From NCBI GenBank assembly GCA_045546155.1, contig JAZQCG010000012.1:477-64476 (forward strand): a stretch of 64,000 nucleotides of DNA, written 5' to 3'. This DNA is from Candidatus Enterousia sp. (GTDB lineage Bacteria > Pseudomonadota > Alphaproteobacteria > Rs-D84). Below the pieces are notes generated by a model. It made no database searches and was not told the origin of the DNA. It worked only from the letters and a program-made list of their open reading frames with translations. The translations under genes were made by a program, and so were the position numbers. This document shows positions 1,659 to 64,000 of the stretch, in pieces (within the stretch, counting starts at the first letter, position 1; every line of letters begins with the position of its first letter).

Positions 1659-3452
1659 ATGAAGCAATCTAATATCCGGAATTTTTCAATTGTTGCACAT
1701 ATCGATCATGGTAAATCGACTCTGTCGGACCGCTTGATTGAATTTACAGGTGGCTTGGAATCGCGTGAGATGAAGGCGCAAGTGTTGGATTCTATGGATA
1801 TTGAACGTGAACGTGGTATTACGATCAAGGCCCAGACAGTGCGTCTGAACTACAAGGCCAAGGATGGGCAAGAATACCAACTGAATTTGATGGATACGCC
1901 GGGGCATGTGGACTTTTCTTATGAGGTATCGCGTTCGCTGGCCGCGTGCGAAGGGGCATTGGTTCTGGTCGATGCAACCCAGGGGGTTCAGGCGCAAACA
2001 TTGGCCAATGCGTATTTGGCGTTGGATAATGATTTGGAAATGTTGCCGGTGTTGAACAAGATTGATTTGCCGTCCAGTGATGTTGCCGGAACACGCGAAC
2101 AAATTGCGGATGTTATCGGTCTGGATGCGAACGAAGCGTTGGCCGTATCGGGCAAGACCGGTGCAGGTGTCCCAGAATTGTTGGAAGAAATCGTGACGAA
2201 ATTACCTGCACCACATGGTAATGAAAATGCGCCGACACGTGCGTTGCTGGTGGATTCTTGGTACGATTCATATCTGGGGGTTGTGATTTTGGTGCGTGTG
2301 GTGGATGGCGCATTAAACCGTGGGCAAAAGATTAAATTTATGGCAACGGGCGCAGAATATGTGGTTGATAAAATCGGATACTTTACCCCGAAAATGGTTA
2401 ATGTTGACACACTGCATACCGGGGAAATTGGATTTATTATTACAGGTATGAAGACAATTCACGACTGCAAGGTTGGGGATACGATAACGGATGCAAAAAA
2501 CACTGGTGCTGAAATGTTGCCGGGGTTTAAGCCGTCTGTGCCGGTGGTGTTTTCATCGTTCTTTCCGGTTGAGGCGGATGATTACCCCGCATTTCGTGAA
2601 AGTTCTGAAAAGTTGGCGTTAAATGATGCGTCATTTATGTTCACAGTGGAAAAGTCATCTGCACTGGGGTTTGGGTTGCGGTGCGGATTTTTGGGCCTGT
2701 TGCATATGGAAATTATCAGTGAACGTTTGTCGCGTGAATTTAATCTGAATCTGATTAACACAGTGCCAAGTGTGCTGTACAAAGTATATCTGCGTAATGG
2801 TGAATGTATCGATTTGGAAAATCCTGCGGATATGCCAGAGGCAACACGCATAGAGCGCATAGAAGAACCATGGGTGCGGGCGACGATTATGATGCCTGAT
2901 AAATATATGGGTGGGATTATGTCGCTGTGCGCGGAACGGCGTGGGGTTCAAGAAAATATTTCTTATGTTGGGAATCGTGCGGTCTTGGTTTATCAATTGC
3001 CGTTGGCGGAAATTGTGTTCGATTTCTATGATCGGGTGAAATCTTTGTCGTCGGGATACGCATCATTTGACTATGTAGTTCAAGGATATCAGCCATCTGA
3101 TTTGGTCAAGGTTTCAATCCTGGTTAACGAAGAAAATGTAGAACCATTATCATTTATGTGTCATCGCAGTTTTGCGGAAAAACGCGGTCGCCAGATTGTG
3201 GAAAAATTAAAAGATCTGATACCGCGTCATCAATTCAAAATTCCATTACAGGCTGCAATCGGTGGCAAAATTATTGCAAGAGAGACAATTGCTGCATATC
3301 GCAAAGACGTGACGGCAAAATGCTATGGGGGGGATATAACACGTAAACGTAAACTGCTTGAAAAACAGAAAGAGGGTAAAAAACGTATGCGCACATTTGG
3401 CAACGTCGAAATCCCACAGTCTGCGTTTATTAATGCGTTAAAAGTATCATAA
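1659..3452 (+). CDS. lepA: Elongation factor 4 (LepA)
   Basis: 597 aa. GTPase motifs [18 protein letters not shown], and the LepA-specific C-terminal region ([22 protein letters not shown]). Confidence 0.97.
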
Positions 3453-6327: not shown

Positions 6328-7578
6328 ATGAAAAGAGTTGTCATTACCGGTATGGGAATTGTATCGCCGGTGGGTACTGGTCTGGATGCGGCATGGCAAA
6401 ATGTTGTTGCCGGTAAATCGGGTGTTCGTAAAATTACTGAATTCGAAGTTGATGATTTAGCATCCCAGATTGCAGGTATCCCAGAACGTGGGGAAGGGGC
6501 CGGACAATATAATCCAGACAGTGTCATTGAACCACGTGAACAACGCAAGATGGATAAATGTATTATTTATGGCATGGTTGCGGCAGATGAAGCAATCAAA
6601 GATGCGGGTTTGGTTGATTATGCCGGTGACAAAGAACGCATTGGCGTTTCAATCGGCAGTGGTATTGGTGGGTTTGACACCATCTATGAAAATTGTATTG
6701 AATTGCATACGGGCGGTCCACGTCGGGTCAGTCCTTTCTTTATCCCAAAGGGTATTATTAATATGACGGCGGGACATGTTTCAATTAAGTATGGGTTCAA
6801 GGGGCCAAACATTTCCGTTGTAACAGCATGTGCAACCGGTGCTCATTCAATTGGAGAAGCCGCCCGCTTAATCAAATATGGTGATGCCGATATTATGATT
6901 TGTGGTGGAACTGAAGGCGCAGTCAGTCGAATCGCCTTGGCGGGATTTTCGGCAATGCGCGCATTAAGTACACGCAACGATGCGCCAGAAGCCGCATCAC
7001 GACCATGGGATAAAAATCGTGATGGTTTTATCATGGCCGAAGGTGCGGGTATTTTGGTTCTGGAAGAATATGAACACGCGGTTGCGCGTGGCGCAAAAAT
7101 CTATGCTGAGGTGGCTGGATACGGCCTGTCGGGGGATGGATATCATATCACAGCGCCCGCCCCAAATGGTGAAGGTGGCAAACGTGCAATGATAGCGGCA
7201 TTAAAAGATGCAGGACTGAACCCAGCGGATGTTAACTATGTTAATGCGCACGGTACATCGACCGGTTTGGGCGACGTTGGTGAATTGGCTGCGGTCCAGG
7301 AATTGTTTAATGGTACAGACGTTTGTATGTCATCAACAAAGTCTGTGACGGGACACTTGTTGGGGGCCGCCGGTGCGGTAGAGGCAATATTCTGTGCCTG
7401 TGCGATTCGTGATGGCATTGTTCCGCCAACAATCAATTTGGATGAACCCGAAGATGCAGTTGGTGATTTCAACCTGGTGCCACATACGGCACAGAAGCGC
7501 GAAGTAAATGTTGCGCTTAGCAATTCGTTTGGGTTTGGTGGGACAAACGCCAGCATCGTCCTTAAAAAAATTAAATAA
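6328..7578 (+). CDS. fabF: 3-oxoacyl-ACP synthase II
   Basis: 416 aa KAS II: active-site context VVTACATG, HGTSTGLGD, GHLLGAAG, NSFGFGGTNAS. Confidence 0.96.
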   Translation: MKRVVITGMGIVSPVGTGLDAAWQNVVAGKSGVRKITEFEVDDLASQIAGIPERGEGAGQYNPDSVIEPREQRKMDKCIIYGMVAADEAIKDAGLVDYAGDKERIGVSIGSGIGGFDTIYENCIELHTGGPRRVSPFFIPKGIINMTAGHVSIKYGFKGPNISVVTACATGAHSIGEAARLIKYGDADIMICGGTEGAVSRIALAGFSAMRALSTRNDAPEAASRPWDKNRDGFIMAEGAGILVLEEYEHAVARGAKIYAEVAGYGLSGDGYHITAPAPNGEGGKRAMIAALKDAGLNPADVNYVNAHGTSTGLGDVGELAAVQELFNGTDVCMSSTKSVTGHLLGAAGAVEAIFCACAIRDGIVPPTINLDEPEDAVGDFNLVPHTAQKREVNVALSNSFGFGGTNASIVLKKIK

Positions 7579-7590
7579 AAAAATCAATTA

Positions 7591-7686
7591 TAATAATTCA
7601 TCTAAAAACAAATCGGGAATCTCATGTAGCGACTTGTACACTACGATTCCCGATTTCTTTTTATCTAAATCATTCTAATTGATTTT
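7591..7686. repeat. Structured intergenic repeat, copy 1 of 3 (long hairpin with conserved apical TGTAGCG..TACAC, flanked by ATCTAA boxes)
   Basis: About 86% identical to 32311-32405. Stem aaatcgggaatc../..gattcccgattt. Lies between the convergent fabF and 7723-8235 genes. Confidence 0.75.
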
Positions 7687-7722
7687 TTCCTAAGCAAGGA
7701 TTTGGTGCTGGGGGATTTTTTC

Positions 7723-8297: not shown

Positions 8298-10103
8298 TTA
8301 TTTTTCGGTTTTTTCTTCTTCCTTCTTATTTTCGTCTTTGTTCAGACCCAATGTGTCACGAATCGGTTCGATGACGTTTTCCTTAATCGGCTCTATAACA
8401 TTTTCTCTGATTGGTTCAATGACGTTTTCTTTAATAGGCTCGATAACGTTTTCCTTGATTGGGTCGATGATGGTTGCCTTGGCACTGTCCAGTGTGCGGA
8501 TAAGGGCACGTCGGATTTTACCGCTGATTGTCATTGGTAATGAATCGACGTATTCAATAACGCGCGGACATTTGTAATGTGCGGTGCGCTGCTTTACATA
8601 ATTGATTAATTGGCGGGTTAATAAATCAGATTCTGTAAAAGTTTTATTTAAGACAATTGTTGCCTTAATCGCTTGCCCGCGTGATGGGTCGGGAATACCG
8701 GTGACGGCAACTTCGCGTACGGCGGGATGTTCGGTCAAGACACTTTCAACTTCGAACGGGCTGACGCGATATCCGGCGGATTTAATCAAATCGTCATTAC
8801 GGCCAACAAACCAGAAATATCCATCCGCATCACGGTACGCAACGTCGCCGGTGTGATAATATCCATCGCGATATGCGGCGGCGGTTTGTTTTTCGTCGTG
8901 ATGATAGCCCTGGAACAGGCCAACGGGACGTTTGTCTTTTAAACAAACACAAATTTCACCAACACAGTTGTCTTTTATCGGGTGGCCGCGCTCATCCAGT
9001 AACTGAACATCCCAGCCCGCCGCTGGCATCCCCATAGAGCCCGGTTTTGGTTCAATCCATGGATTGTTAAACAGCATGACGGTTGTTTCGGTTTGGCCAA
9101 ATCCTTCGCGCAGCTTGATGCCGGTCTTTTCAAGAAAGCGTTCATAGACTTCGGGGTTTAGGGCCTCGCCAGCGATGTCGGCTTTTTTCAATTTTGATAA
9201 ATCGTATTTTGACATATCGGCGTGAATCATCATCTTGTACGCGGTCGGTGGTGCGCAAAATGATGTTATGCCGTGTGTGGAAATTGCCGTCAATAAATCG
9301 TGCGCATTGAATACGCGTGAAAAATCGTATATGAATACCGTTGCCCCCGCCAGCCATTGACCGTACATTTTTCCCCACGAACATTTTGCCCAGCCGGATT
9401 CAGATAATGTAAAGTGTATATCATTTTCATCCAGTCGTTGCCAGAACATGGCGGTGTTAATATGTCCCAATGGGTATGTAAAATTATGGGCAACCATTTT
9501 TGGCATGTTGGTTGTACCACTTGTAAAATAAACAACCATCGTGTCGGTGTTTTCGTTTTTTATGCGTGGAAAAGTATCTGGGTAATATTCCAATGCACCG
9601 GCGATATCGCTTGATGGGATTAATTGTATATCGGTACTTTCGCCAATTGCAGATTTTATTTCATCTATAATATGACCGTCATCAAATGCGATAATGGTTT
9701 TGACGTCTGCGGTATCAATACGGTATTTAATGTCTTTGGATTTTAATTGATTGGTTGATGGGATTGGAATTGCGCAAATCTTGTGCATTGCCATCATTAG
9801 CACCCAATATTCCCACCGTCTGCGCATAAATAACAGTACTGTATCATTGCGTTTTATTCCGTGGTCGGTTAAAAAATTAGCGACCATATTTGAATAGCGT
9901 GATAGGTCACGAAATGTAAAAGTTTTTGTTTCGCCGCTGTCATCTGTCCAGATTATGGCAACTTTATCCGGTGACACTTTTGCGATTTCATCGATAACAT
10001 CATATGCAAAGTTAAAGTTGTCTGGAACATTTGGCACTGCGTTTTCTTTGTAATCATCATAATTATCAAATGTATTTTTGTTCAAAAACCGTAGTGCGAA
10101 CAT
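8298..10103 (-). CDS. AMP-forming acyl-CoA synthetase (medium-chain/ACSM-like) with repetitive C-terminal tail
   Basis: AMP-binding motifs YFTSGTTNMPKMV, GYYHTGD, ISGKIRR. Start set at MFALRF (10103) with AAAGGA SD. Tail is (ENVIEPIK)x5 plus KDENKKEEEKTEK. Confidence 0.9.
   Translation of the reverse strand: MFALRFLNKNTFDNYDDYKENAVPNVPDNFNFAYDVIDEIAKVSPDKVAIIWTDDSGETKTFTFRDLSRYSNMVANFLTDHGIKRNDTVLLFMRRRWEYWVLMMAMHKICAIPIPSTNQLKSKDIKYRIDTADVKTIIAFDDGHIIDEIKSAIGESTDIQLIPSSDIAGALEYYPDTFPRIKNENTDTMVVYFTSGTTNMPKMVAHNFTYPLGHINTAMFWQRLDENDIHFTLSESGWAKCSWGKMYGQWLAGATVFIYDFSRVFNAHDLLTAISTHGITSFCAPPTAYKMMIHADMSKYDLSKLKKADIAGEALNPEVYERFLEKTGIKLREGFGQTETTVMLFNNPWIEPKPGSMGMPAAGWDVQLLDERGHPIKDNCVGEICVCLKDKRPVGLFQGYHHDEKQTAAAYRDGYYHTGDVAYRDADGYFWFVGRNDDLIKSAGYRVSPFEVESVLTEHPAVREVAVTGIPDPSRGQAIKATIVLNKTFTESDLLTRQLINYVKQRTAHYKCPRVIEYVDSLPMTISGKIRRALIRTLDSAKATIIDPIKENVIEPIKENVIEPIRENVIEPIKENVIEPIRDTLGLNKDENKKEEEKTEK
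8361..8473. repeat. Tandem 24-nt repeat (about 4.7 copies) inside the 3' end of the acyl-CoA synthetase CDS
   Basis: aatcggttcgatgacgttttcctt / aatcggctctataacattttctct / gattggttcaatgacgttttcttt / aataggctcgataacgttttcctt / gattgggtcgatgatgg. In frame, encoding [IP]IKENVIEP units. Confidence 0.9.
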
Positions 10104-10181
10104 ATTTATTCCTTTTGGTTTGCAAAAATAAATATGGGGCACAGATGGCCAAATTACAAGTAAAAATATGAAAAAATTAAG

Positions 10182-10401: not shown

Positions 10402-11385
10402 ATGGTTGATGAAAAAGTAAATTTTGAATTAGTGCCAGAAATCGACTGGGGCGATGAATACGAAGGGGTGTCTGGGCGGGCCACCACGGTTGTGCGTATG
10501 GAATCGTTGGATGGGAGTTTTGTTGAAAAATTTGTAAGTGAAACGGGCCCGTATGCAATGCGGTGGCCAATGTGGTTGGCAAAACAAATAGATGCCGCGC
10601 AAATTACAAATGATTTAAGGGCCAAACATAATCCGCACTATGATGTGCCAAAGACTTTTATTTCCCATGGTCATGTACGTGAACAGTATGTTGATGGGAT
10701 TAATGCAGATGAATACACGGGTAATAAGGCTGATTTAATTCCAGCAATTGCACATTTTATTAATGATATGTCGGAATTGCGCCCGCTTAGGTTTGTTCGT
10801 AATCATGGTGTAAATGGGCTGCAAATGGAAAATATTGCGGATCTGGACAAGCTATTGGACAAGGTGCGTAAATACAATGTTGTTCGTGAAGAGAACTTAA
10901 AATTAATTCGCGATGTATTTGAATTTTTGCGTGATATACCTGAAAACAATTATTTTGTTTTTGGACATAATGATTTGCATCCTGGAAATGTGTTGGTGAA
11001 TCCAAAGACTGGACGTATGTCTGTGATTGATTTTGAATTGTCGGGGTATCAACCAATGTCTTATATGCTTTATACACAAATGCAAATGGGGCCGCCCGTG
11101 TGGGATTATGTAAATAAATTGCCGCGCGTTGTTAACCCGAAGTTGCGCTGGAATTATGATGCACGTATTGCAGAACTCTATAATTTTATGCACAGGGTGA
11201 TGCTGAATATAGAAAAGTCCTATGTGTATGACAAAGATATGGCGGCAAATATTTTGTCGGATATTAATATGCTTTGCAATCCGGTTGTGCGAAAAAAATT
11301 CGCAGCACTTAAACTAAAGTATCAAGATACCTTGGTATGCGACGAGATGTCGTTGGTGCCGGTTTCGCATTATGAACGTGGGTAA
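10402..11385 (+). CDS. Protein-kinase-like-fold phosphotransferase (APH/choline-kinase type), paralog A
   Basis: Catalytic loop HNDLHPGN (HxDxxxxN) followed by VIDFELSGY. Clearly paralogous to 12865-13857 along its length; both end in LVP[VM]SHYE. Confidence 0.7.
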   Translation: MVDEKVNFELVPEIDWGDEYEGVSGRATTVVRMESLDGSFVEKFVSETGPYAMRWPMWLAKQIDAAQITNDLRAKHNPHYDVPKTFISHGHVREQYVDGINADEYTGNKADLIPAIAHFINDMSELRPLRFVRNHGVNGLQMENIADLDKLLDKVRKYNVVREENLKLIRDVFEFLRDIPENNYFVFGHNDLHPGNVLVNPKTGRMSVIDFELSGYQPMSYMLYTQMQMGPPVWDYVNKLPRVVNPKLRWNYDARIAELYNFMHRVMLNIEKSYVYDKDMAANILSDINMLCNPVVRKKFAALKLKYQDTLVCDEMSLVPVSHYERG

Positions 11386-11785
11386 CAAGATACGGTTGGG
11401 GGTAAAAGATATGTTTTTTCCAAAAAGTGTTTTGGGATTTTATGTAAAGTATTTTTGGCGATATTGTGGGCTTGTTGCGCTGTTGTATTCTGTGTTGGCG
11501 ATAATTGATGTGTTTGTGACAAATTTATTGCCTGCATATTTTTTGAAACAGGTGGTAAATGTTCTGGAATCTGTTCAAATGGCAGAGGCTTTTGAACGCT
11601 TGGCGCGTGGTCGAACAACGATTGTTATTGCGCACAGATTATCAACCCTGCGTAACATGGATAGAATTATTGTTTTAGATAATGGCCAGGTTATAGAGCA
11701 GGGCTCGCATAATCAGTTGGTGCGTTCGGGCGGTGTCTATTCTCGATTATGGAAAATGCAATCGGGTGGATTTATTCAAGAATAA
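11372..11785 (+). pseudogene. Internally collapsed ABC exporter (MsbA-type) remnant
   Basis: The N-terminus looks like TM1 of an ABC exporter (WRYCGLVALLYSVLAIIDVFVTNLLPAYFLKQV). It is joined directly to the extreme C-terminus of the ATPase domain (RGRTTIVIAHRLSTLRNMDRIIVLDNGQVIEQGSH..YSRLWKMQ). Walker A, the signature motif and most of the TMD are missing. Confidence 0.7.
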
Positions 11786-12864: not shown

Positions 12865-13857
12865 ATGGATACTAGAACCTTTCAAATTGTTACACCAGAT
12901 GATGCCGCAGAGCAGGTTGATTTGCCATCAGGACATGCAACGGTTGTAAGAAAAATGGAAACATTAACCGGTGATGTTGTTGTTAAGGAAATAAACAAAA
13001 AAACAGGTAAGTTTAATGTTGCAGAGGCGGAACGTGAAGTATGGTGGTTAAATGCCCAGAAAAAAGCTAAGGTAAATTCAGAAAAGATAAGAGAAAAAGG
13101 CAGTTCTGTATATTTTGTTCCAAAAACCTATGTTTCACATGGCAAGGTTCGTGAAGAATTTGTTTCTGGTAATCGTTGGCGCGATGTGTTTAAAGGGCTT
13201 TCAGAACAGGATAAGATGTGGGCGTTTAAAGCGGTGGCAGAATTCATTAATGATATGTCTGAATTATATCCTATTAAATATGATGATAAAGTGCGCAGTG
13301 TGCCTTTTATTCCTATAAAAGGGCCAGAAGCATTGGCCAAAGGGTTGGAAACATTAGATGAAAAATATATTTCCAAAGAAGATAAGCAGTTGATTCAAGA
13401 TATTTATGAATATTTAAGTCGTGTTCCTGAAAACAGAGTATTGGTTTGGGGGCATAATGATTTACATCCTGATAATATCATCATAGACCTGGAAAAAAGA
13501 CAAATTGGTATCATAGATTTTGAATTGTCGGGGTATGGTTCGGCATTTTGTTCTATGTACAGGGGGATGATGGATTCGCCGGATTTTTGGGATTATGTGA
13601 ACAAATTGCCACGTTCAAAAAATCCAGATTTTTCATGGAACTTTGTGTCAGAGCATCGCGATTTGCATCGTTTTTTGCGCTGGGCATATAAGGAAGTTGT
13701 AGAAAGTGGCCAAAGTTTAGAAAGTGTTAGCGATAAGCTGAGGGCGGAGTGTGAAAGGGTTCGATATATTTTTGCGCGTGCTAAGATAAAATCCAACACG
13801 CCTGCTGAAAAGCAGAAAATGCCATTGGTTCCGATGTCGCATTATGAAAAGGATTAA
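12865..13857 (+). CDS. Protein-kinase-like-fold phosphotransferase, paralog B
   Basis: HNDLHPDN and IIDFELSGY motifs. ATG at 12865 with GGGGGG SD preferred over GTG at 12859. Confidence 0.7.
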   Translation: MDTRTFQIVTPDDAAEQVDLPSGHATVVRKMETLTGDVVVKEINKKTGKFNVAEAEREVWWLNAQKKAKVNSEKIREKGSSVYFVPKTYVSHGKVREEFVSGNRWRDVFKGLSEQDKMWAFKAVAEFINDMSELYPIKYDDKVRSVPFIPIKGPEALAKGLETLDEKYISKEDKQLIQDIYEYLSRVPENRVLVWGHNDLHPDNIIIDLEKRQIGIIDFELSGYGSAFCSMYRGMMDSPDFWDYVNKLPRSKNPDFSWNFVSEHRDLHRFLRWAYKEVVESGQSLESVSDKLRAECERVRYIFARAKIKSNTPAEKQKMPLVPMSHYEKD

Positions 13858-14192
13858 AAACATTTTAATTCATTTTTTTGCGCGTTGTATGGCGGGTGTC
13901 GGGTTTGCTAAAAAAATATTTTAAATTTTTTTGCTTGAAGTCGTCACTTGGTTAATTTTATTAATTATTAAAAATTATAACGAATTATAACAAAATAAAT
14001 AAACGCCTTAGATTTTGGGCGTTTTGGTTTGTCTTAAGAATAAAATCCGATTCGTGGACGCGCGTTAGAATAGCATAAAAATGCGTGTTTTGCAAAAATC
14101 TTTAATCTTGTCGGTGGGATTTTTTACCTGATACAATTGTACTAACTAGACGAATTAATCTAGTTTAGTTAACAAAAACGAAAGGAAATAAT

Positions 14193-31373: not shown

Positions 31374-31751
31374 ATGGCACGTATAGCAGGTGTGAATATT
31401 CCGACAGAAAAGCGCATCGAAATCGCGTTGCAGTACATTCACGGTATTGGTCCAGCCAAATCCGCACAAATCTGCAAGGCTTTGAAACTGAAAGATGGTT
31501 TGCGCGCAAAAGATCTGACGGACGAAGATGTTATTAAAATTTCTAAATACATCGAAGAAAACTTTAAAGTAGAAGGTGATGTTCGTCGTGAAGTTACAAT
31601 GAACATCAAACGTTTGCAGGACTTGAAGGCATATCGTGGTATCCGTCATCGTAACCGTTTGCCGGTTCGTGGTCAGCGTACCCAGACAAATGCCCGTACA
31701 CGTAAAGGTAAACGTGTTGTAGTCGCAGGTTCAGCAACCAAAGGGAAATAA
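31374..31751 (+). CDS. rpsM: 30S ribosomal protein S13
   Basis: [14 protein letters not shown]... Confidence 0.98.
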
Positions 31752-31756
31752 AAATT

Positions 31757-31855
31757 AATCTAACGCCGCATCTATGCGCGTTGGGCTCTGGTCATGTAGC
31801 GTTTGTACACTCCCGTCGCCCAACACACATACCTGCAACGTTATCTTAATTTTTT
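31757..31855. repeat. Structured intergenic repeat, copy 2 of 3 (divergent)
   Basis: Shares the ATCTAA box, the apical catgtagcgtttgtacact and the 3' ttatcttaatttttt with copies 1 and 3. The basal stem is changed to gttgggc/gcccaac but still pairs. Confidence 0.6.
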
Positions 31856-31916
31856 GGAATAAGGTAGAGATTAACACCATAGTTAATTGAAGACATCTAA
31901 ATAAGGAAAAATAAAA

Positions 31917-32300
31917 ATGGCAGTAACAAAAGCTAAAAAGAAAGTCGTAAAAAAAGTATCGCATGGTATTGCGCATATTGTTGCGACAAATAACAATACA
32001 CGTATCACAATCACAGACCAGTCTGGCGCCGTATTGACATGGGCAACCGCTGGGGCGAATAATTTTAAAGGCGCAAAGAAATCTACACCATATGCTGCGA
32101 CAGTAGTAGCAGACGCAGTTGGCAAGAAAGTCGCCGAAATGGGCATGAAAACAGTTGATGTTTTGATGCGTGGTATTGGTCAGGGTCGTGAATCAGCGGT
32201 TCGTGGCTTGGCAAATGCAGGCTTGGTCGTACAATCAATCACAGACACAACACGTATTCCACACAATGGTTGTCGTCCAAAGAAAGTACGTCGCGTATAA
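31917..32300 (+). CDS. rpsK: 30S ribosomal protein S11
   Basis: ..GIAHIVATNNNTRITITD...GCRPKKVRRV. Confidence 0.98.
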   Translation: MAVTKAKKKVVKKVSHGIAHIVATNNNTRITITDQSGAVLTWATAGANNFKGAKKSTPYAATVVADAVGKKVAEMGMKTVDVLMRGIGQGRESAVRGLANAGLVVQSITDTTRIPHNGCRPKKVRRV

Positions 32301-32310
32301 AGTAAATTGC

Positions 32311-32405
32311 AATAATTTATCTAAGAATAAATCGGGCATCTTGTGTAGCGAATTTACACTATGATGCCCGATTTGATTTTATCTAAATCGTTCTAATTTA
32401 TTTTA
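32311..32405. repeat. Structured intergenic repeat, copy 3 of 3
   Basis: About 86% identical to 7591-7686. Stem aaatcgggcatc../..gatgcccgattt with a compensatory A-T to C-G change relative to copy 1. Confidence 0.75.
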
Positions 32406-32422
32406 ATAAATATTTGTGCACT

Positions 32423-32998
32423 ATGGGGATGGCATTGTTTATATCTAGATTATTATCTTTATCATCAAGTGCATCGGGTGTAAATACCAAACCGGAAAAA
32501 GATTTGGAAACAATATTAAATAATTCTGACAAATCTTTGGGTATGGTTAATGGTAATATGATAAAACTGGTGCCGATGAACACAACCAATGGAACAAGTG
32601 CAAAAATCATTAATATTAATGGTAATGCGGTTGCGGTTGTGGACTATCGTGGACGCAGATTGCCGTACTATGTAAATGCCCAGACTGGTTCATGGATACC
32701 TTTGTTGGGTATTGGTAAAACAGGTGGCTGGTTTAATACATACCTGTCTAATACCCCGGGCAGGGTGGTGGACCAGGTACAGCGCGTGTTGAATCAGCAA
32801 TTAAAGCCGGCAATTGTTGCCCAGTTTGTTGGTGCAAATGCCTTGGGCGTTCAATTCCCAATGCCGGCTTTGGATGCGTACAATGTTATCAATGCAGAAT
32901 TCCCAAATGGTGTTGTTGAAACATTTAACGGTACGTTTAGTCCATCGGACCAGGCTTTGTATAATGATAATTATAACAAAATGAAAAATATCGCATAA
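32423..32998 (+). CDS. Hypothetical protein inserted between rpsK and rpoA
   Basis: ORF track 32414-32998 (TTG). First ATG at 32423, so the start is uncertain. No family recognised. Confidence 0.45.
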   Translation: MGMALFISRLLSLSSSASGVNTKPEKDLETILNNSDKSLGMVNGNMIKLVPMNTTNGTSAKIININGNAVAVVDYRGRRLPYYVNAQTGSWIPLLGIGKTGGWFNTYLSNTPGRVVDQVQRVLNQQLKPAIVAQFVGANALGVQFPMPALDAYNVINAEFPNGVVETFNGTFSPSDQALYNDNYNKMKNIA

Positions 32999-33026
32999 AA
33001 AAATCCGCCCGTTTGGGCGGTTTTTT
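32997..33026 (+). terminator. Rho-independent terminator
   Basis: aaaaaaatccgccc-gttt-gggcgg followed by TTTTTT. Confidence 0.7.
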
Positions 33027-33100
33027 GTGGACATATGTGAATTGTATGCTACCATGGTTTCACCAGTGGGGTGGGGTGTAGTGGTATATAAGGATTTAAT

Positions 33101-33427
33101 ATGAAAAAAATTTTATTTGCATCTTTTTTGTCGATGGTTATTGCTGCGCCGGCTGTTGCGGATGGGGTGGTAACTGAAACAGAAACTGTTACAACGGTCG
33201 AAGTAGTTGAATATAACTACAATGCGCCACGTTATGTGTCGTCGGCCCAGGTTGTTCCGCATAAACGCCCATGTGCGAAAAAGGCAATGCCTGTTCGTGT
33301 CAAAACACACACAGAAGTCATTGATCATTATCAATTGTATCAACCAGTAACGATTTATCAGCCCGCGGGTCGTGTATCAACACGTCGTATTATTCGTGCC
33401 CCCCAGGTGTGCAATAAATGTTATTAA
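33101..33427 (+). CDS. Small secreted protein, hypothetical
   Basis: Signal peptide MKKILFASFLSMVIAAPAVA; 108 aa; ends CNKCY. Confidence 0.5.
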   Translation: MKKILFASFLSMVIAAPAVADGVVTETETVTTVEVVEYNYNAPRYVSSAQVVPHKRPCAKKAMPVRVKTHTEVIDHYQLYQPVTIYQPAGRVSTRRIIRAPQVCNKCY

Positions 33428-34071
33428 TGCTTATTATTACGGTGTTGTCAATGAGTCCAGCGTTAAGATTAAAGTTCTTGGAAAAATTGTTCGCTAAACG
33501 CGAAGTGGTTGTGCCAGAAAAGTTAACTGATGAACGTGCACGACAAATTTTGGCGGATTACGCTAATCATGTTGTGATGTATAATTTTGATACACGCAAA
33601 TGGAATTGTTATTATTATCTGGGGCACAGTGTTATGACAACGGGTGTTGATTGCGCGCGTATGAAAAGCGAAATTGAACGCACGCATCCAAATATTGAAT
33701 TGGCGGCGGTGGTTGGTATGGCGATTGTAAAGCCGCGCTTACAATTGTTTACATATTTACCAAAACCTGCAACACGTAGCGATTCTGCACCGATGGCGTA
33801 TGCGACATTTATTACCCGTGACAAAAAAACGGGAAAATTAAATGAATTGCCACAAAAATGGGTACGCTTGTCTGAGTGCACACATCCTAATTTTGTATGT
33901 GAGGCAATGCCACAGTTGCTGTCTAGTATGGGGTATTCTTCGGCGCCAATGTGGCATATAGATTGGTGTTTGGATGGTGAAAAGATAACGTCGCCATTGA
34001 TTGCCGCGCAGGAGCGAGAAAAATATTATCGCCAAGTTAAGAAGGAAATGTCAGGGGCTAAAAAAAGATAA
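33418..34071 (+). CDS. Hypothetical cytosolic protein, paralog of 63279-63884
   Basis: Shares YNFDTRKWN..YYLG with FNFDTECWNRSRYLG in the paralog, plus similar length and layout. Start uncertain (33418 or 33451). Confidence 0.5.
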   Translation: MLLMLIITVLSMSPALRLKFLEKLFAKREVVVPEKLTDERARQILADYANHVVMYNFDTRKWNCYYYLGHSVMTTGVDCARMKSEIERTHPNIELAAVVGMAIVKPRLQLFTYLPKPATRSDSAPMAYATFITRDKKTGKLNELPQKWVRLSECTHPNFVCEAMPQLLSSMGYSSAPMWHIDWCLDGEKITSPLIAAQEREKYYRQVKKEMSGAKKR

Positions 34072-34079
34072 TATGCGCA

Positions 34080-34268
34080 ATGGGACGGCCACGTAAGCTT
34101 TTGTCAAATGACCAGATTGATACAATTTCCTGTGATTTAGAATTTTCAAAACAAATGATAAAAACACGGAATTTAACGGTTAATGATTTAACCGTTGTAT
34201 TGCGTCATATTGATATGGTGCGTGATGATTTGGTGGCGGCGCTAAATGCCCGACAAAAACAAAAATAG
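34080..34268 (+). CDS. Small hypothetical protein (62 aa) with GRPRK N-terminus
   Basis: ORF only. The basic N-terminus MGRPRKLL suggests nucleic-acid binding, but this is weak. Confidence 0.3.
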   Translation: MGRPRKLLSNDQIDTISCDLEFSKQMIKTRNLTVNDLTVVLRHIDMVRDDLVAALNARQKQK

Positions 34269-57663: not shown

Positions 57664-57689
57664 TTCCCCGCCAAATGGCGGGATTTTTA
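57664..57689 (+). terminator. Rho-independent terminator (start of the 112-nt direct repeat)
   Basis: cccgcc-aaat-ggcggg followed by aTTTTT. Confidence 0.7.
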
Positions 57690-57778
57690 TTTATTCAAAT
57701 TAACATGCGAATAAAAAAATTATAATTCCATGTTTCTATATATAATTATTTGAAATCAGTGTAAAAAATCCTAAAAAA
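57667..57778 (+). repeat. 112-nt direct repeat, copy A (copy B at 63890-64000)
   Basis: About 92% identity by hand alignment. Covers the terminator plus about 85 nt of AT-rich downstream sequence (..cgaataaaaaaattataattccatgttt.tatatataa.tatttgaaatcagtgtaaaaaa.cctaaaaaa). Confidence 0.85.
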
Positions 57779-63889: not shown

Positions 63890-64000
63890 CCCGCCAAATG
63901 GCGGGATTTTTATTTATTCAGATTTCGTACGAATAAAAAAATTATAATTCCATGTTTTTATATATAACTATTTGAAATCAGTGTAAAAAAACCTAAAAAA
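63890..64000 (+). repeat. 112-nt direct repeat, copy B (runs into the window end)
   Basis: Begins with the terminator cccgcc-aaat-ggcggg-attttt. About 92% identical to 57667-57778. Confidence 0.85.

Follow-up and report, generated by a model that had tools for sequence, protein, structure and literature searches.

A dispersed family of palindromic cassettes docked behind stop codons in Candidatus Enterousia

What is the structured repeat that recurs behind fabF, rpsM, and rpsK in a gut alphaproteobacterium, and why do the stems of its copies differ by changes that compensate each other? The question is raised by a 64,000-nt stretch of DNA, hereafter the window, which is contig C12 of a 1.0-Mb assembly (12 contigs, 97% complete) of Candidatus Enterousia, an uncultured gut alphaproteobacterium of the order Rs-D84 (PMC12306168). 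A chance origin of the three-copy repeat is excluded, and the flagged stretches are members of a dispersed family of ~113-nt palindromic cassettes that is apparently undescribed. A literature search found no account of repeats in Enterousia. No Rfam family matches the repeat: at the gathering score the only match in the window was a tRNA, and in E-value mode the best models for the repeat were those of plant miRNA precursors, at 30 bits versus a threshold of 211.

The three copies lie where a preliminary description of the window had placed them (Table 1), and Pfam confirms that the genes upstream of them are fabF, rpsM (S13), and rpsK (S11). The similarity of copies 1 and 3 had been put at about 86% for positions 7591-7686 and 32311-32405; a global alignment lowers this figure to 83.5%, while the 3' halves are 88% identical. 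The rpsM copy, at ~56% identity to the other two, does share the ATCTA box and the apex with them and has an unrelated but complementary middle stem, and the paired change between the copies behind fabF and rpsK (cgggAATc/gATTcccg versus cgggCATc/gATGcccg) is present as described. The hairpin had been taken to comprise some 19 bp. In fact, the inverted arms are 43–44 nt long (44 nt and 86% complementary in copy 1), which makes each unit, of 113–115 nt, one hairpin of ~45 bp. Copy 1 folds with −32.9 kcal/mol on the plus strand and −50.8 on the minus strand (z −8.5 and −12.4), copy 2 has z scores of −4.6 on the plus and −9.5 on the minus strand, and that of copy 3 is −8.2; over all three copies z ranges from −4.6 to −12.4, and none of 200 shuffles folded as well. 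The fold energies of the two strands disagree between copies. Copy 2 has orthologous copies in the genomes G006, G019, G021, G024, G074, and G205. Copy 3 borders, as had been noticed, an insert in the alpha operon, a stretch between rpsK and rpoA that is unannotatable and also variable, since in G074, a close relative, what lies downstream of rpsK shows no similarity to our genome. Four ORFs (194, 108, 217, and 62 aa) without Pfam match occupy this stretch (window 32414-34268), and rpsD is missing from the operon.

Table 1. Parts of the three units in the window and tail or leader sites beside units (window positions unless another locus is named)
Feature	Position	Strand	Remarks
Copy 1, full unit after fabF	7577-7691	+	fabF stop 7576-7578; covariance-model score 118.5 bits
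Copy 1, 5' basal arm	7577-7599	+	
Copy 1, ATCTA boxes	7600-7604 and 7663-7667	+	
Copy 1, middle arms	5' 7605-7621; 3' 7645-7662	+	
Copy 1, apex	7622-7644	+	TCA TGTA GCGACTTG TACA CTAC
Copy 1, 3' basal arm and T-run	7668-7688	+	
Tail after copy 1 (tail/leader site)	7689-7721	+	CCTAAGCAAGGATTTGGTGCTGGGGGA, then T-run
Copy 2, full unit between rpsM and rpsK	31747-31859	+	rpsM stop 31749-31751; 79.6 bits
Copy 2, ATCTA box	31770-31774	+	
Copy 2, middle arms	5' 31775-31791; 3' from 31814	+	5' arm TGCGCGTTGGGCTCTGG
Copy 2, apex	31792-31813	+	
Copy 2, T-run	31850-31855	+	
Copy 3, full unit after rpsK	32296-32409	+	rpsK stop 32298-32300; 98.6 bits
Copy 3, ATCTA boxes	32319-32323 and 32381-32385	+	
Copy 3, middle arms	5' 32324-32340; 3' 32363-32380	+	
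Copy 3, apex	32341-32362	+	
Copy 3, 3' base	32386-32404	+	
Tail-like sequence behind copy 3 (tail/leader site)	32414-32435	+	TGTGCACTATGGGGATGGC, then variable insert before rpoA
Other tail/leader sites	L113:9380-9860; L117:16270-16540		

As a single strand, the unit forms one long hairpin of four parts. The AT-rich basal stem begins on the stop codon or a few bases from it and sometimes supplies it. ATCT is invariant on both sides, and in the fold the two ATCT boxes make up a symmetric internal loop. The middle stem, of 17–18 bp, is free in sequence and keeps its pairing. The apex is conserved and asymmetric (TGTA-loop-TACACT), and its mini-stem is lengthened in variants by compensated pairs (TGTAC...GTACA, TGTAT...ATACA). 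The internal GTAG, earlier regarded as a feature, occurs inside the apex only and is replaced in many copies, which have GTAAC, GTACG, or GTATG there. Units are mosaics of basal-arm, middle-arm, and apex types, and chimeric units were found at L103:419 and L089:10258.

The compensation that first drew attention to the repeat is real. In an alignment of 54 distinct full units, for which a three-helix structure was written and pairs were counted, 86.4% of the paired cells hold a pair, versus 67.4% in shuffles and 36–45% when the partners are slid. The covariation score is 0.468 versus 0.142 ± 0.007 in shuffles, none of 500 of which reaches 0.468, and with slid partners it stays at or below 0.127. 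Of the helices, the middle one has 20 pairs and is 91% paired; 18 of the 20 show double changes, with up to five pair types per position. The basal helix comes in two types that co-vary: TAATGGCAT with ATACCATTA, and TAATAATTC with AAATCATTC. Mismatches on the sense strand comprise 72 G.T versus 41 A.C, a proportion that is compatible with the mutational skew of the strand and bears no clear mark of a single-stranded RNA.

The family extends well beyond the three copies that had been counted: a motif scan together with a covariance model trained on 17 copies found nine full units and one partial, 5'-truncated unit in the genome. The six full units outside the window lie 3' of dnaN, efp, an SNase-like gene (two in tandem), clpB, and trxB, and the truncated unit sits behind that of efp. 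Across the genus, at least one unit was found in 156 of 201 genomes among the candidates scored in the model search; a second search of the genus gave, among the matches listed, 0 to 38 model matches per genome with both strands counted, and genomes of the genus differ in copy number from none to more than 20. Weaker matches occur in six other genera of the order Rs-D84, five of the six from the same family, and the apex motif has no match in a viral contig collection. On these matches, the repeat does not extend beyond Candidatus Enterousia and some of the sister genera within its order. Copy-free genomes have a FabF at most 80% identical to that of our genome and copy-rich ones a FabF at least 83% identical; the copy-free genomes are thus all distant, so that a contrast of gene content between the two is confounded by phylogeny. 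For a closer survey, 40 regions from six related genomes were scanned together with our genome (~1.7 Mb in total), yielding 133 units, of which 82 are full at the 5' end and 51 truncated.

Two rules of placement, absent from the preliminary description, emerge from these data. Every full unit of our genome starts at most 5 nt from the stop codon of the upstream gene and in the orientation of that gene, and in all 133 of the 133 units surveyed the sense strand is the locally G-rich, leading strand. The contigs of our genome agree, C12, C10, and C11 combining a positive skew with plus-strand units and C5 a negative skew with a minus-strand unit. Among ORFs of at least 100 aa, a docked unit stands behind 59 of 605 on the leading strand versus none of 319 on the lagging strand (Fisher p = 7e-12). 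The template of the lagging strand is the parental strand whose sequence is that of a leading-strand gene; from this established replication geometry we infer that the sense hairpin would lie on the strand that becomes single-stranded for a time at the fork. The orientation of the apex is almost as strict, being normal in 88 distinct units and inverted in one. This one, found at the efp 3' end of G074 (L152:~2907-3010) and G205 (L158), has its base in the normal orientation, and its apex looks like a loop inversion of the template-switching kind.

The units surveyed make up 75 arrays, 41 of them single units. A full unit at the stop codon opens 73 of the 75, the two exceptions being a contig end and a fragment, and 49 of the 58 later units lack the 5' base together with most of the arm on that side. 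Truncated units of this kind open with a conserved leader (C-run, YGCAAGGGG, G-run), and their remaining distal arms pair less well (5.8 versus 8.1 of 9). A leader-like tail (C-run, YGCAAGGGG or GCTAGGAG, G-run) is also seen behind many last units, including copies 1 and 3. In a comparison of 80 fabF 3' ends (L029, L032, L015, and L019 versus L004, L008, and our genome), the tail of copy 1 occupies the place of the fabF terminator CCCCCAGAAATTCTGGGGGATTTTT of element-free relatives; it is not called by a simple terminator scan and is probably a decayed resident terminator.

A site-by-site comparison with two close relatives, whose FabF is 97% and 96% identical to that of our genome, reveals an exchange of units and of their parts, and stems that change fast while keeping their pairing. 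At fabF both relatives have another arm type, docked 13 nt nearer the stop codon. The dnaN unit retains its basal arms and has a different inner cassette between the two ATCT boxes. At clpB the three genomes differ at 5–6 of 17 arm positions, all compensated, within flanks that are ~93% identical. The nuclease gene is followed by the resident A-type unit alone in G074 and in G024, a more distant genome, and by a canonical terminator in more distant relatives; our genome has an extra complete unit of 107 nt, c4, placed precisely between that A-type unit and the TAA, with a junction ambiguity of 0–3 nt (AAT). Parsimony over the three genomes favors reading c4 as an insertion, a deletion via the AAT microhomology being formally possible, and the c4 insertion, taken as such, shows that the leader is not part of the inserted unit. 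No other copy in our genome has the arms of c4, an arm type common in other species, and identical arms are found at different genes in different species, such as TGAACGGTGCCGTCCCC in four of them. No target-site duplication is visible. Since the ATCTA boxes of a unit are direct repeats, we considered ATCTA as the target duplication of a mobile inner unit and rejected it: 2.5 Mb of sequence hold essentially no basal hairpin that stands alone with one ATCTA. Short, degenerate AT-rich hairpins resembling the basal stem alone occur at the 3' end of the SNase-like gene in L183 (G060) and L180 (G123), one of them with a single ATCTA (ATTAGAATAACTT ATCTA ACTTAATTTATT), and may possibly be footprints or empty sites. 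Exchange is one side of the picture: the rpsM, dnaN, efp, trxB, and fabF sites are occupied across many species, so vertical inheritance and gene conversion, in place of transposition, may explain much of the distribution.

The arms change together even between very similar units. The units c1 and c5 differ at three positions, two of which form one compensated pair. In 35 close pairs differing at 1–14 positions, 92 stem differences are double-sided versus 82 single-sided; random placement gives 12.9 ± 3.3 double-sided differences (maximum 24 in 1000 trials), about one seventh of those observed, although the pairs are not independent of one another. Templating of one arm by the other within the fold would account for this, as would a process in which only fold-competent masters leave descendants; as both need the fold, the single-strand fold would be part of the mechanism. 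The preliminary description had taken the covariation as a sign of selection on structure. The covariation itself stands; selection is only one reading of it, since arm templating or the selection of masters fits equally well.

The place occupied by the units is that of a terminator. We matched 53 arrays in relatives to the orthologous gene ends of our genome; in the 36 comparisons where our genome has no unit, a canonical terminator lies within 110 nt of the stop codon in 34, usually abutting it, whereas only 8 of the 53 arrays in relatives have one behind them (Fisher p = 1e-14 versus 34/36). Among the 80 fabF 3' ends are plain terminators, eroded units, units that represent at least eight arm types, and, in L011, a plain terminator with an A-type arm as its stem. 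Plain terminator hairpins with such A-type arm stems (AAATCGGGMATC ... GATKCCCGATTT) and neither apex nor ATCTA boxes occur in C5:75700-75800 of our genome and in L011:2750-2800; either units have eroded to them or the arm type has come from them. Whole units are not called by a simple terminator scan, and the basal stem by the T-run is AU-only; A-type inner stems carry a T-run. We infer the terminator role of the units from their position only, and the copy between rpsM and rpsK, inside what is normally a single operon, is awkward for a strong terminator.

Other repeats in the window are of different kinds. Positions 8-130 and 1239-1649 hold inverted arrays of GTTAGTG-like heptads, a second kind of repeat whose heptads follow canonical terminators elsewhere in the genome. 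Two intergenic segments of ~110 nt (57667-57778 and 63890-64000), each a terminator hairpin followed by an AT-rich segment, are 96–97% identical. Four to five tandem 24-nt repeats (8362-8481) lie in the 3' part of a minus-strand gene for an AMP-binding enzyme (8298-10142), and the stretches 10743-11391 and 13230-13863, 2487 nt apart and 71–81% identical, are probably tandem paralogous genes.

One of the known systems that come nearest is that of REP, BIME, and REPIN sequences with their RAYT transposases (TnpA-REP, Y1 HUH; PMC3733652, PMC3479197). Like REPINs, the Enterousia units are extragenic, multi-copy, and hairpin-forming, have a similar total length, and stand singly or in tandem at gene 3' ends; as with REPs and REPINs, sequence sub-families exist within a genome and the elements are presumed to act as folded single strands. 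Unlike them, the Enterousia repeat comes without a RAYT: PF01797 (Y1_Tnp), the domain of RAYT and of IS200/IS605 TnpA, has no match in any of 41 genomes (our own, 24 of the same genus, and 16 of the same order), in a search whose control was positive in 6 of 14 model genomes. The absence of a RAYT noted for the window therefore holds equally for the rest of the genome and for 40 relatives. Moreover, whereas REPs carry a GTAG/CGTC tag at the foot of the hairpin, the Enterousia repeat conserves its apex and has an AT-rich, untagged foot; its arms are not REP palindromes, and its exact docking at stop codons and absolute restriction to the leading strand set it further apart.

Insertion sequences of the IS200/IS605 family (IS608, ISDra2) are oriented strictly by the direction of replication, their active strand being on the template of the lagging strand; they recognize hairpins and make no target duplication. 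Enterousia units resemble them in their strict replication polarity, with the sense strand on the lagging-strand template, and differ in the lack of TnpA in the 41 genomes, in having a single long hairpin rather than two subterminal ones, and in a target of which only a TAA/A-rich context can be defined (TAA/AAT at c4), in place of a fixed tetra- or pentanucleotide. With intrinsic (Rho-independent) terminators, bidirectional ones included, they share an A-rich 5' flank, a hairpin, and a T-rich 3' flank directly after the stop codon, and they substitute for them at orthologous gene ends; however, their hairpin has ~45 bp, two internal loops, an AU-only base, and an apex and boxes conserved in sequence, their arm types are common to loci and species, and they serve leading-strand genes only. 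Palindromes of ~100–150 bp are also known from small or AT-rich genomes (Correia, ERIC, and RUP elements, Rickettsia palindromic elements, and the double-hairpin elements of fungal mitochondria), where some are co-transcribed and work as sites of termination or processing, and some contribute ORF ends. In contrast to MITEs with terminal inverted repeats, the center and boxes of the Enterousia unit are conserved and its inner termini variable, it has neither a target-site duplication nor a parent IS, and its polarity is absolute; and unlike the Rickettsia palindromic elements, by description in-frame inside ORFs of Rickettsiales, it lies at ORF ends. Finally, the unit recalls the attC sites of integrons in that structure is conserved over sequence and that a folded single-strand hairpin with unpaired features lies, strand-specifically, 3' of ORFs, but it comes without IntI, without R and L core sequences, and beside core genes. 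The earlier suggestion of a small RNA, a terminator, or a REP/MITE-like element is supported in part: the repeat is REP/MITE-like in kind and, by the comparison of orthologous gene ends, in terminator position, while nothing in the sequence comparisons speaks for a free-standing small RNA. It is like a single-strand element (REPIN, IS200) in polarity and like a terminator in position, and does not bear the defining marks of REP/RAYT systems, MITEs with terminal inverted repeats, or attC.

On balance, and with considerable reserve, we favor the view that the units are REPIN-like hairpin cassettes, mobile or recombining, which serve as gene terminators and have probably spread by a strand-specific, replication-linked mechanism. 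The cassette would fill the slot between the stop codon and the next gene in which relatives have an intrinsic terminator, and the hairpin of its transcript would most likely be the terminator or 3'-end hairpin of the gene. Insertion of units right behind the TAA, exchange of their inner parts, and co-change of their arms are seen in the comparison of genomes; propagation would occur at the replication fork, on single-stranded DNA in its folded form, by a logic like that of IS200/IS605 elements and REPINs. To judge from the genomes searched, the enzyme of this spread is not a RAYT/Y1 transposase. Tyrosine recombinases (PF00589) number 2–8 per genome without relation to copy number, and G023, with 17 model matches, has two, presumably XerC and XerD. 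The presence of xerC near the trxB copy was considered as a link and reflects only conserved synteny; similarly, no convincing dif/Xer likeness of the basal stem was found, the dif candidates of our genome being unrelated.

It is also conceivable, if rather doubtful, that the units propagate themselves as ‘terminator cassettes’ whose copying or insertion needs no HUH transposase, and that an Enterousia factor or the replisome recognizes the invariant apex on the lagging-strand template. Whichever it is would act a fixed distance away, on the ATCT/ATCT loop or on the foot of the hairpin that follows the TAA, and one arm would serve as template for the other in this same fold. Such a mode of propagation would explain the absolute polarity, the docking at stop codons, the swaps of inner cassettes, and the concerted arms.

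We consider it unlikely that the repeat is instead a cis-acting RNA element, a 3'-UTR hairpin whose apex and ATCU loop are bound by a host protein for processing, stabilization, or factor-dependent termination, and whose copies are kept by selection on RNA structure and resemble each other through shared function, not mobility. The copies, always in sense orientation and directly after the stop codon, would indeed be part of the mRNA, and their strong covariation, conserved apex and internal loop, occupancy of orthologous rpsM, dnaN, efp, trxB, and fabF sites over many species, and replacement of terminators would all suit such a role. Nevertheless, an RNA function does not predict that none of 319 lagging-strand genes has a copy. 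Copy numbers from 0 to more than 20 within one genus, tandem arrays with 5'-truncated units, the swapping of whole units and inner cassettes between close relatives, and double changes among near-identical copies also speak against it, as do the A.C mismatches, common on the sense strand (41 versus 72 G.T).

That the units are ordinary intrinsic terminators, homogenized by gene conversion and template switching without transposition or dedicated machinery, seems to us improbable. New sites would then arise when copy-choice, running through the A-tract and T-tract of a terminator, overwrites it, and canonical terminators here are also docked at stop codons and flanked by such tracts. Plain terminators with A-type arms (L011 at fabF; C5:75797 of our genome), mosaic and chimeric units, and the lack of a transposase (PF01797, 41 genomes) agree with this, and the one inverted apex is what template switching in inverted repeats predicts, according to an excerpt of PMC8604942. 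Conversion leaves unexplained, however, the absolute strand polarity, the 88:1 orientation of the apex, and the retention of the invariant apex and ATCT boxes, and c4 added a complete 107-nt unit beside an existing one, which is no conversion. Very improbable, lastly, are folded single-strand recombination sites (like attC or the Xer substrate of the CTX phage) at which a tyrosine recombinase exchanges adjacent DNA, since in spite of the conserved boxes, the unpaired symmetric internal loop, the variable stem, a length in the attC range, the strand-specific position 3' of ORFs, and one copy that borders the variable insert after rpsK, the docked genes are core genes (fabF, rpsM, rpsK, dnaN, efp, trxB, clpB) and not cassettes, the ends have no GTTRRRY/RYYYAAC cores, G023 combines 17 model matches with two tyrosine recombinases, and the units bear no likeness to the dif-like candidates of our genome.

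If the favored reading, a REPIN-like cassette that serves as terminator, is true, an entire genus of gut bacteria with minimal genomes has swapped many of its ordinary terminators for a mobile hairpin cassette whose orientation follows that of replication without a single exception. The family would then offer a natural system for the recognition and copying of folded single-stranded DNA at the fork without the known REP and IS200 enzymes, a clear case of concerted evolution between the arms of short palindromes, and a practical marker of replichore orientation for fragmented metagenome-assembled genomes. It would also remind us that covariation in a repeat family need not imply a functional RNA. 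Should the units prove to be self-propagating, they would represent a new mobility mechanism for bacterial repeats.
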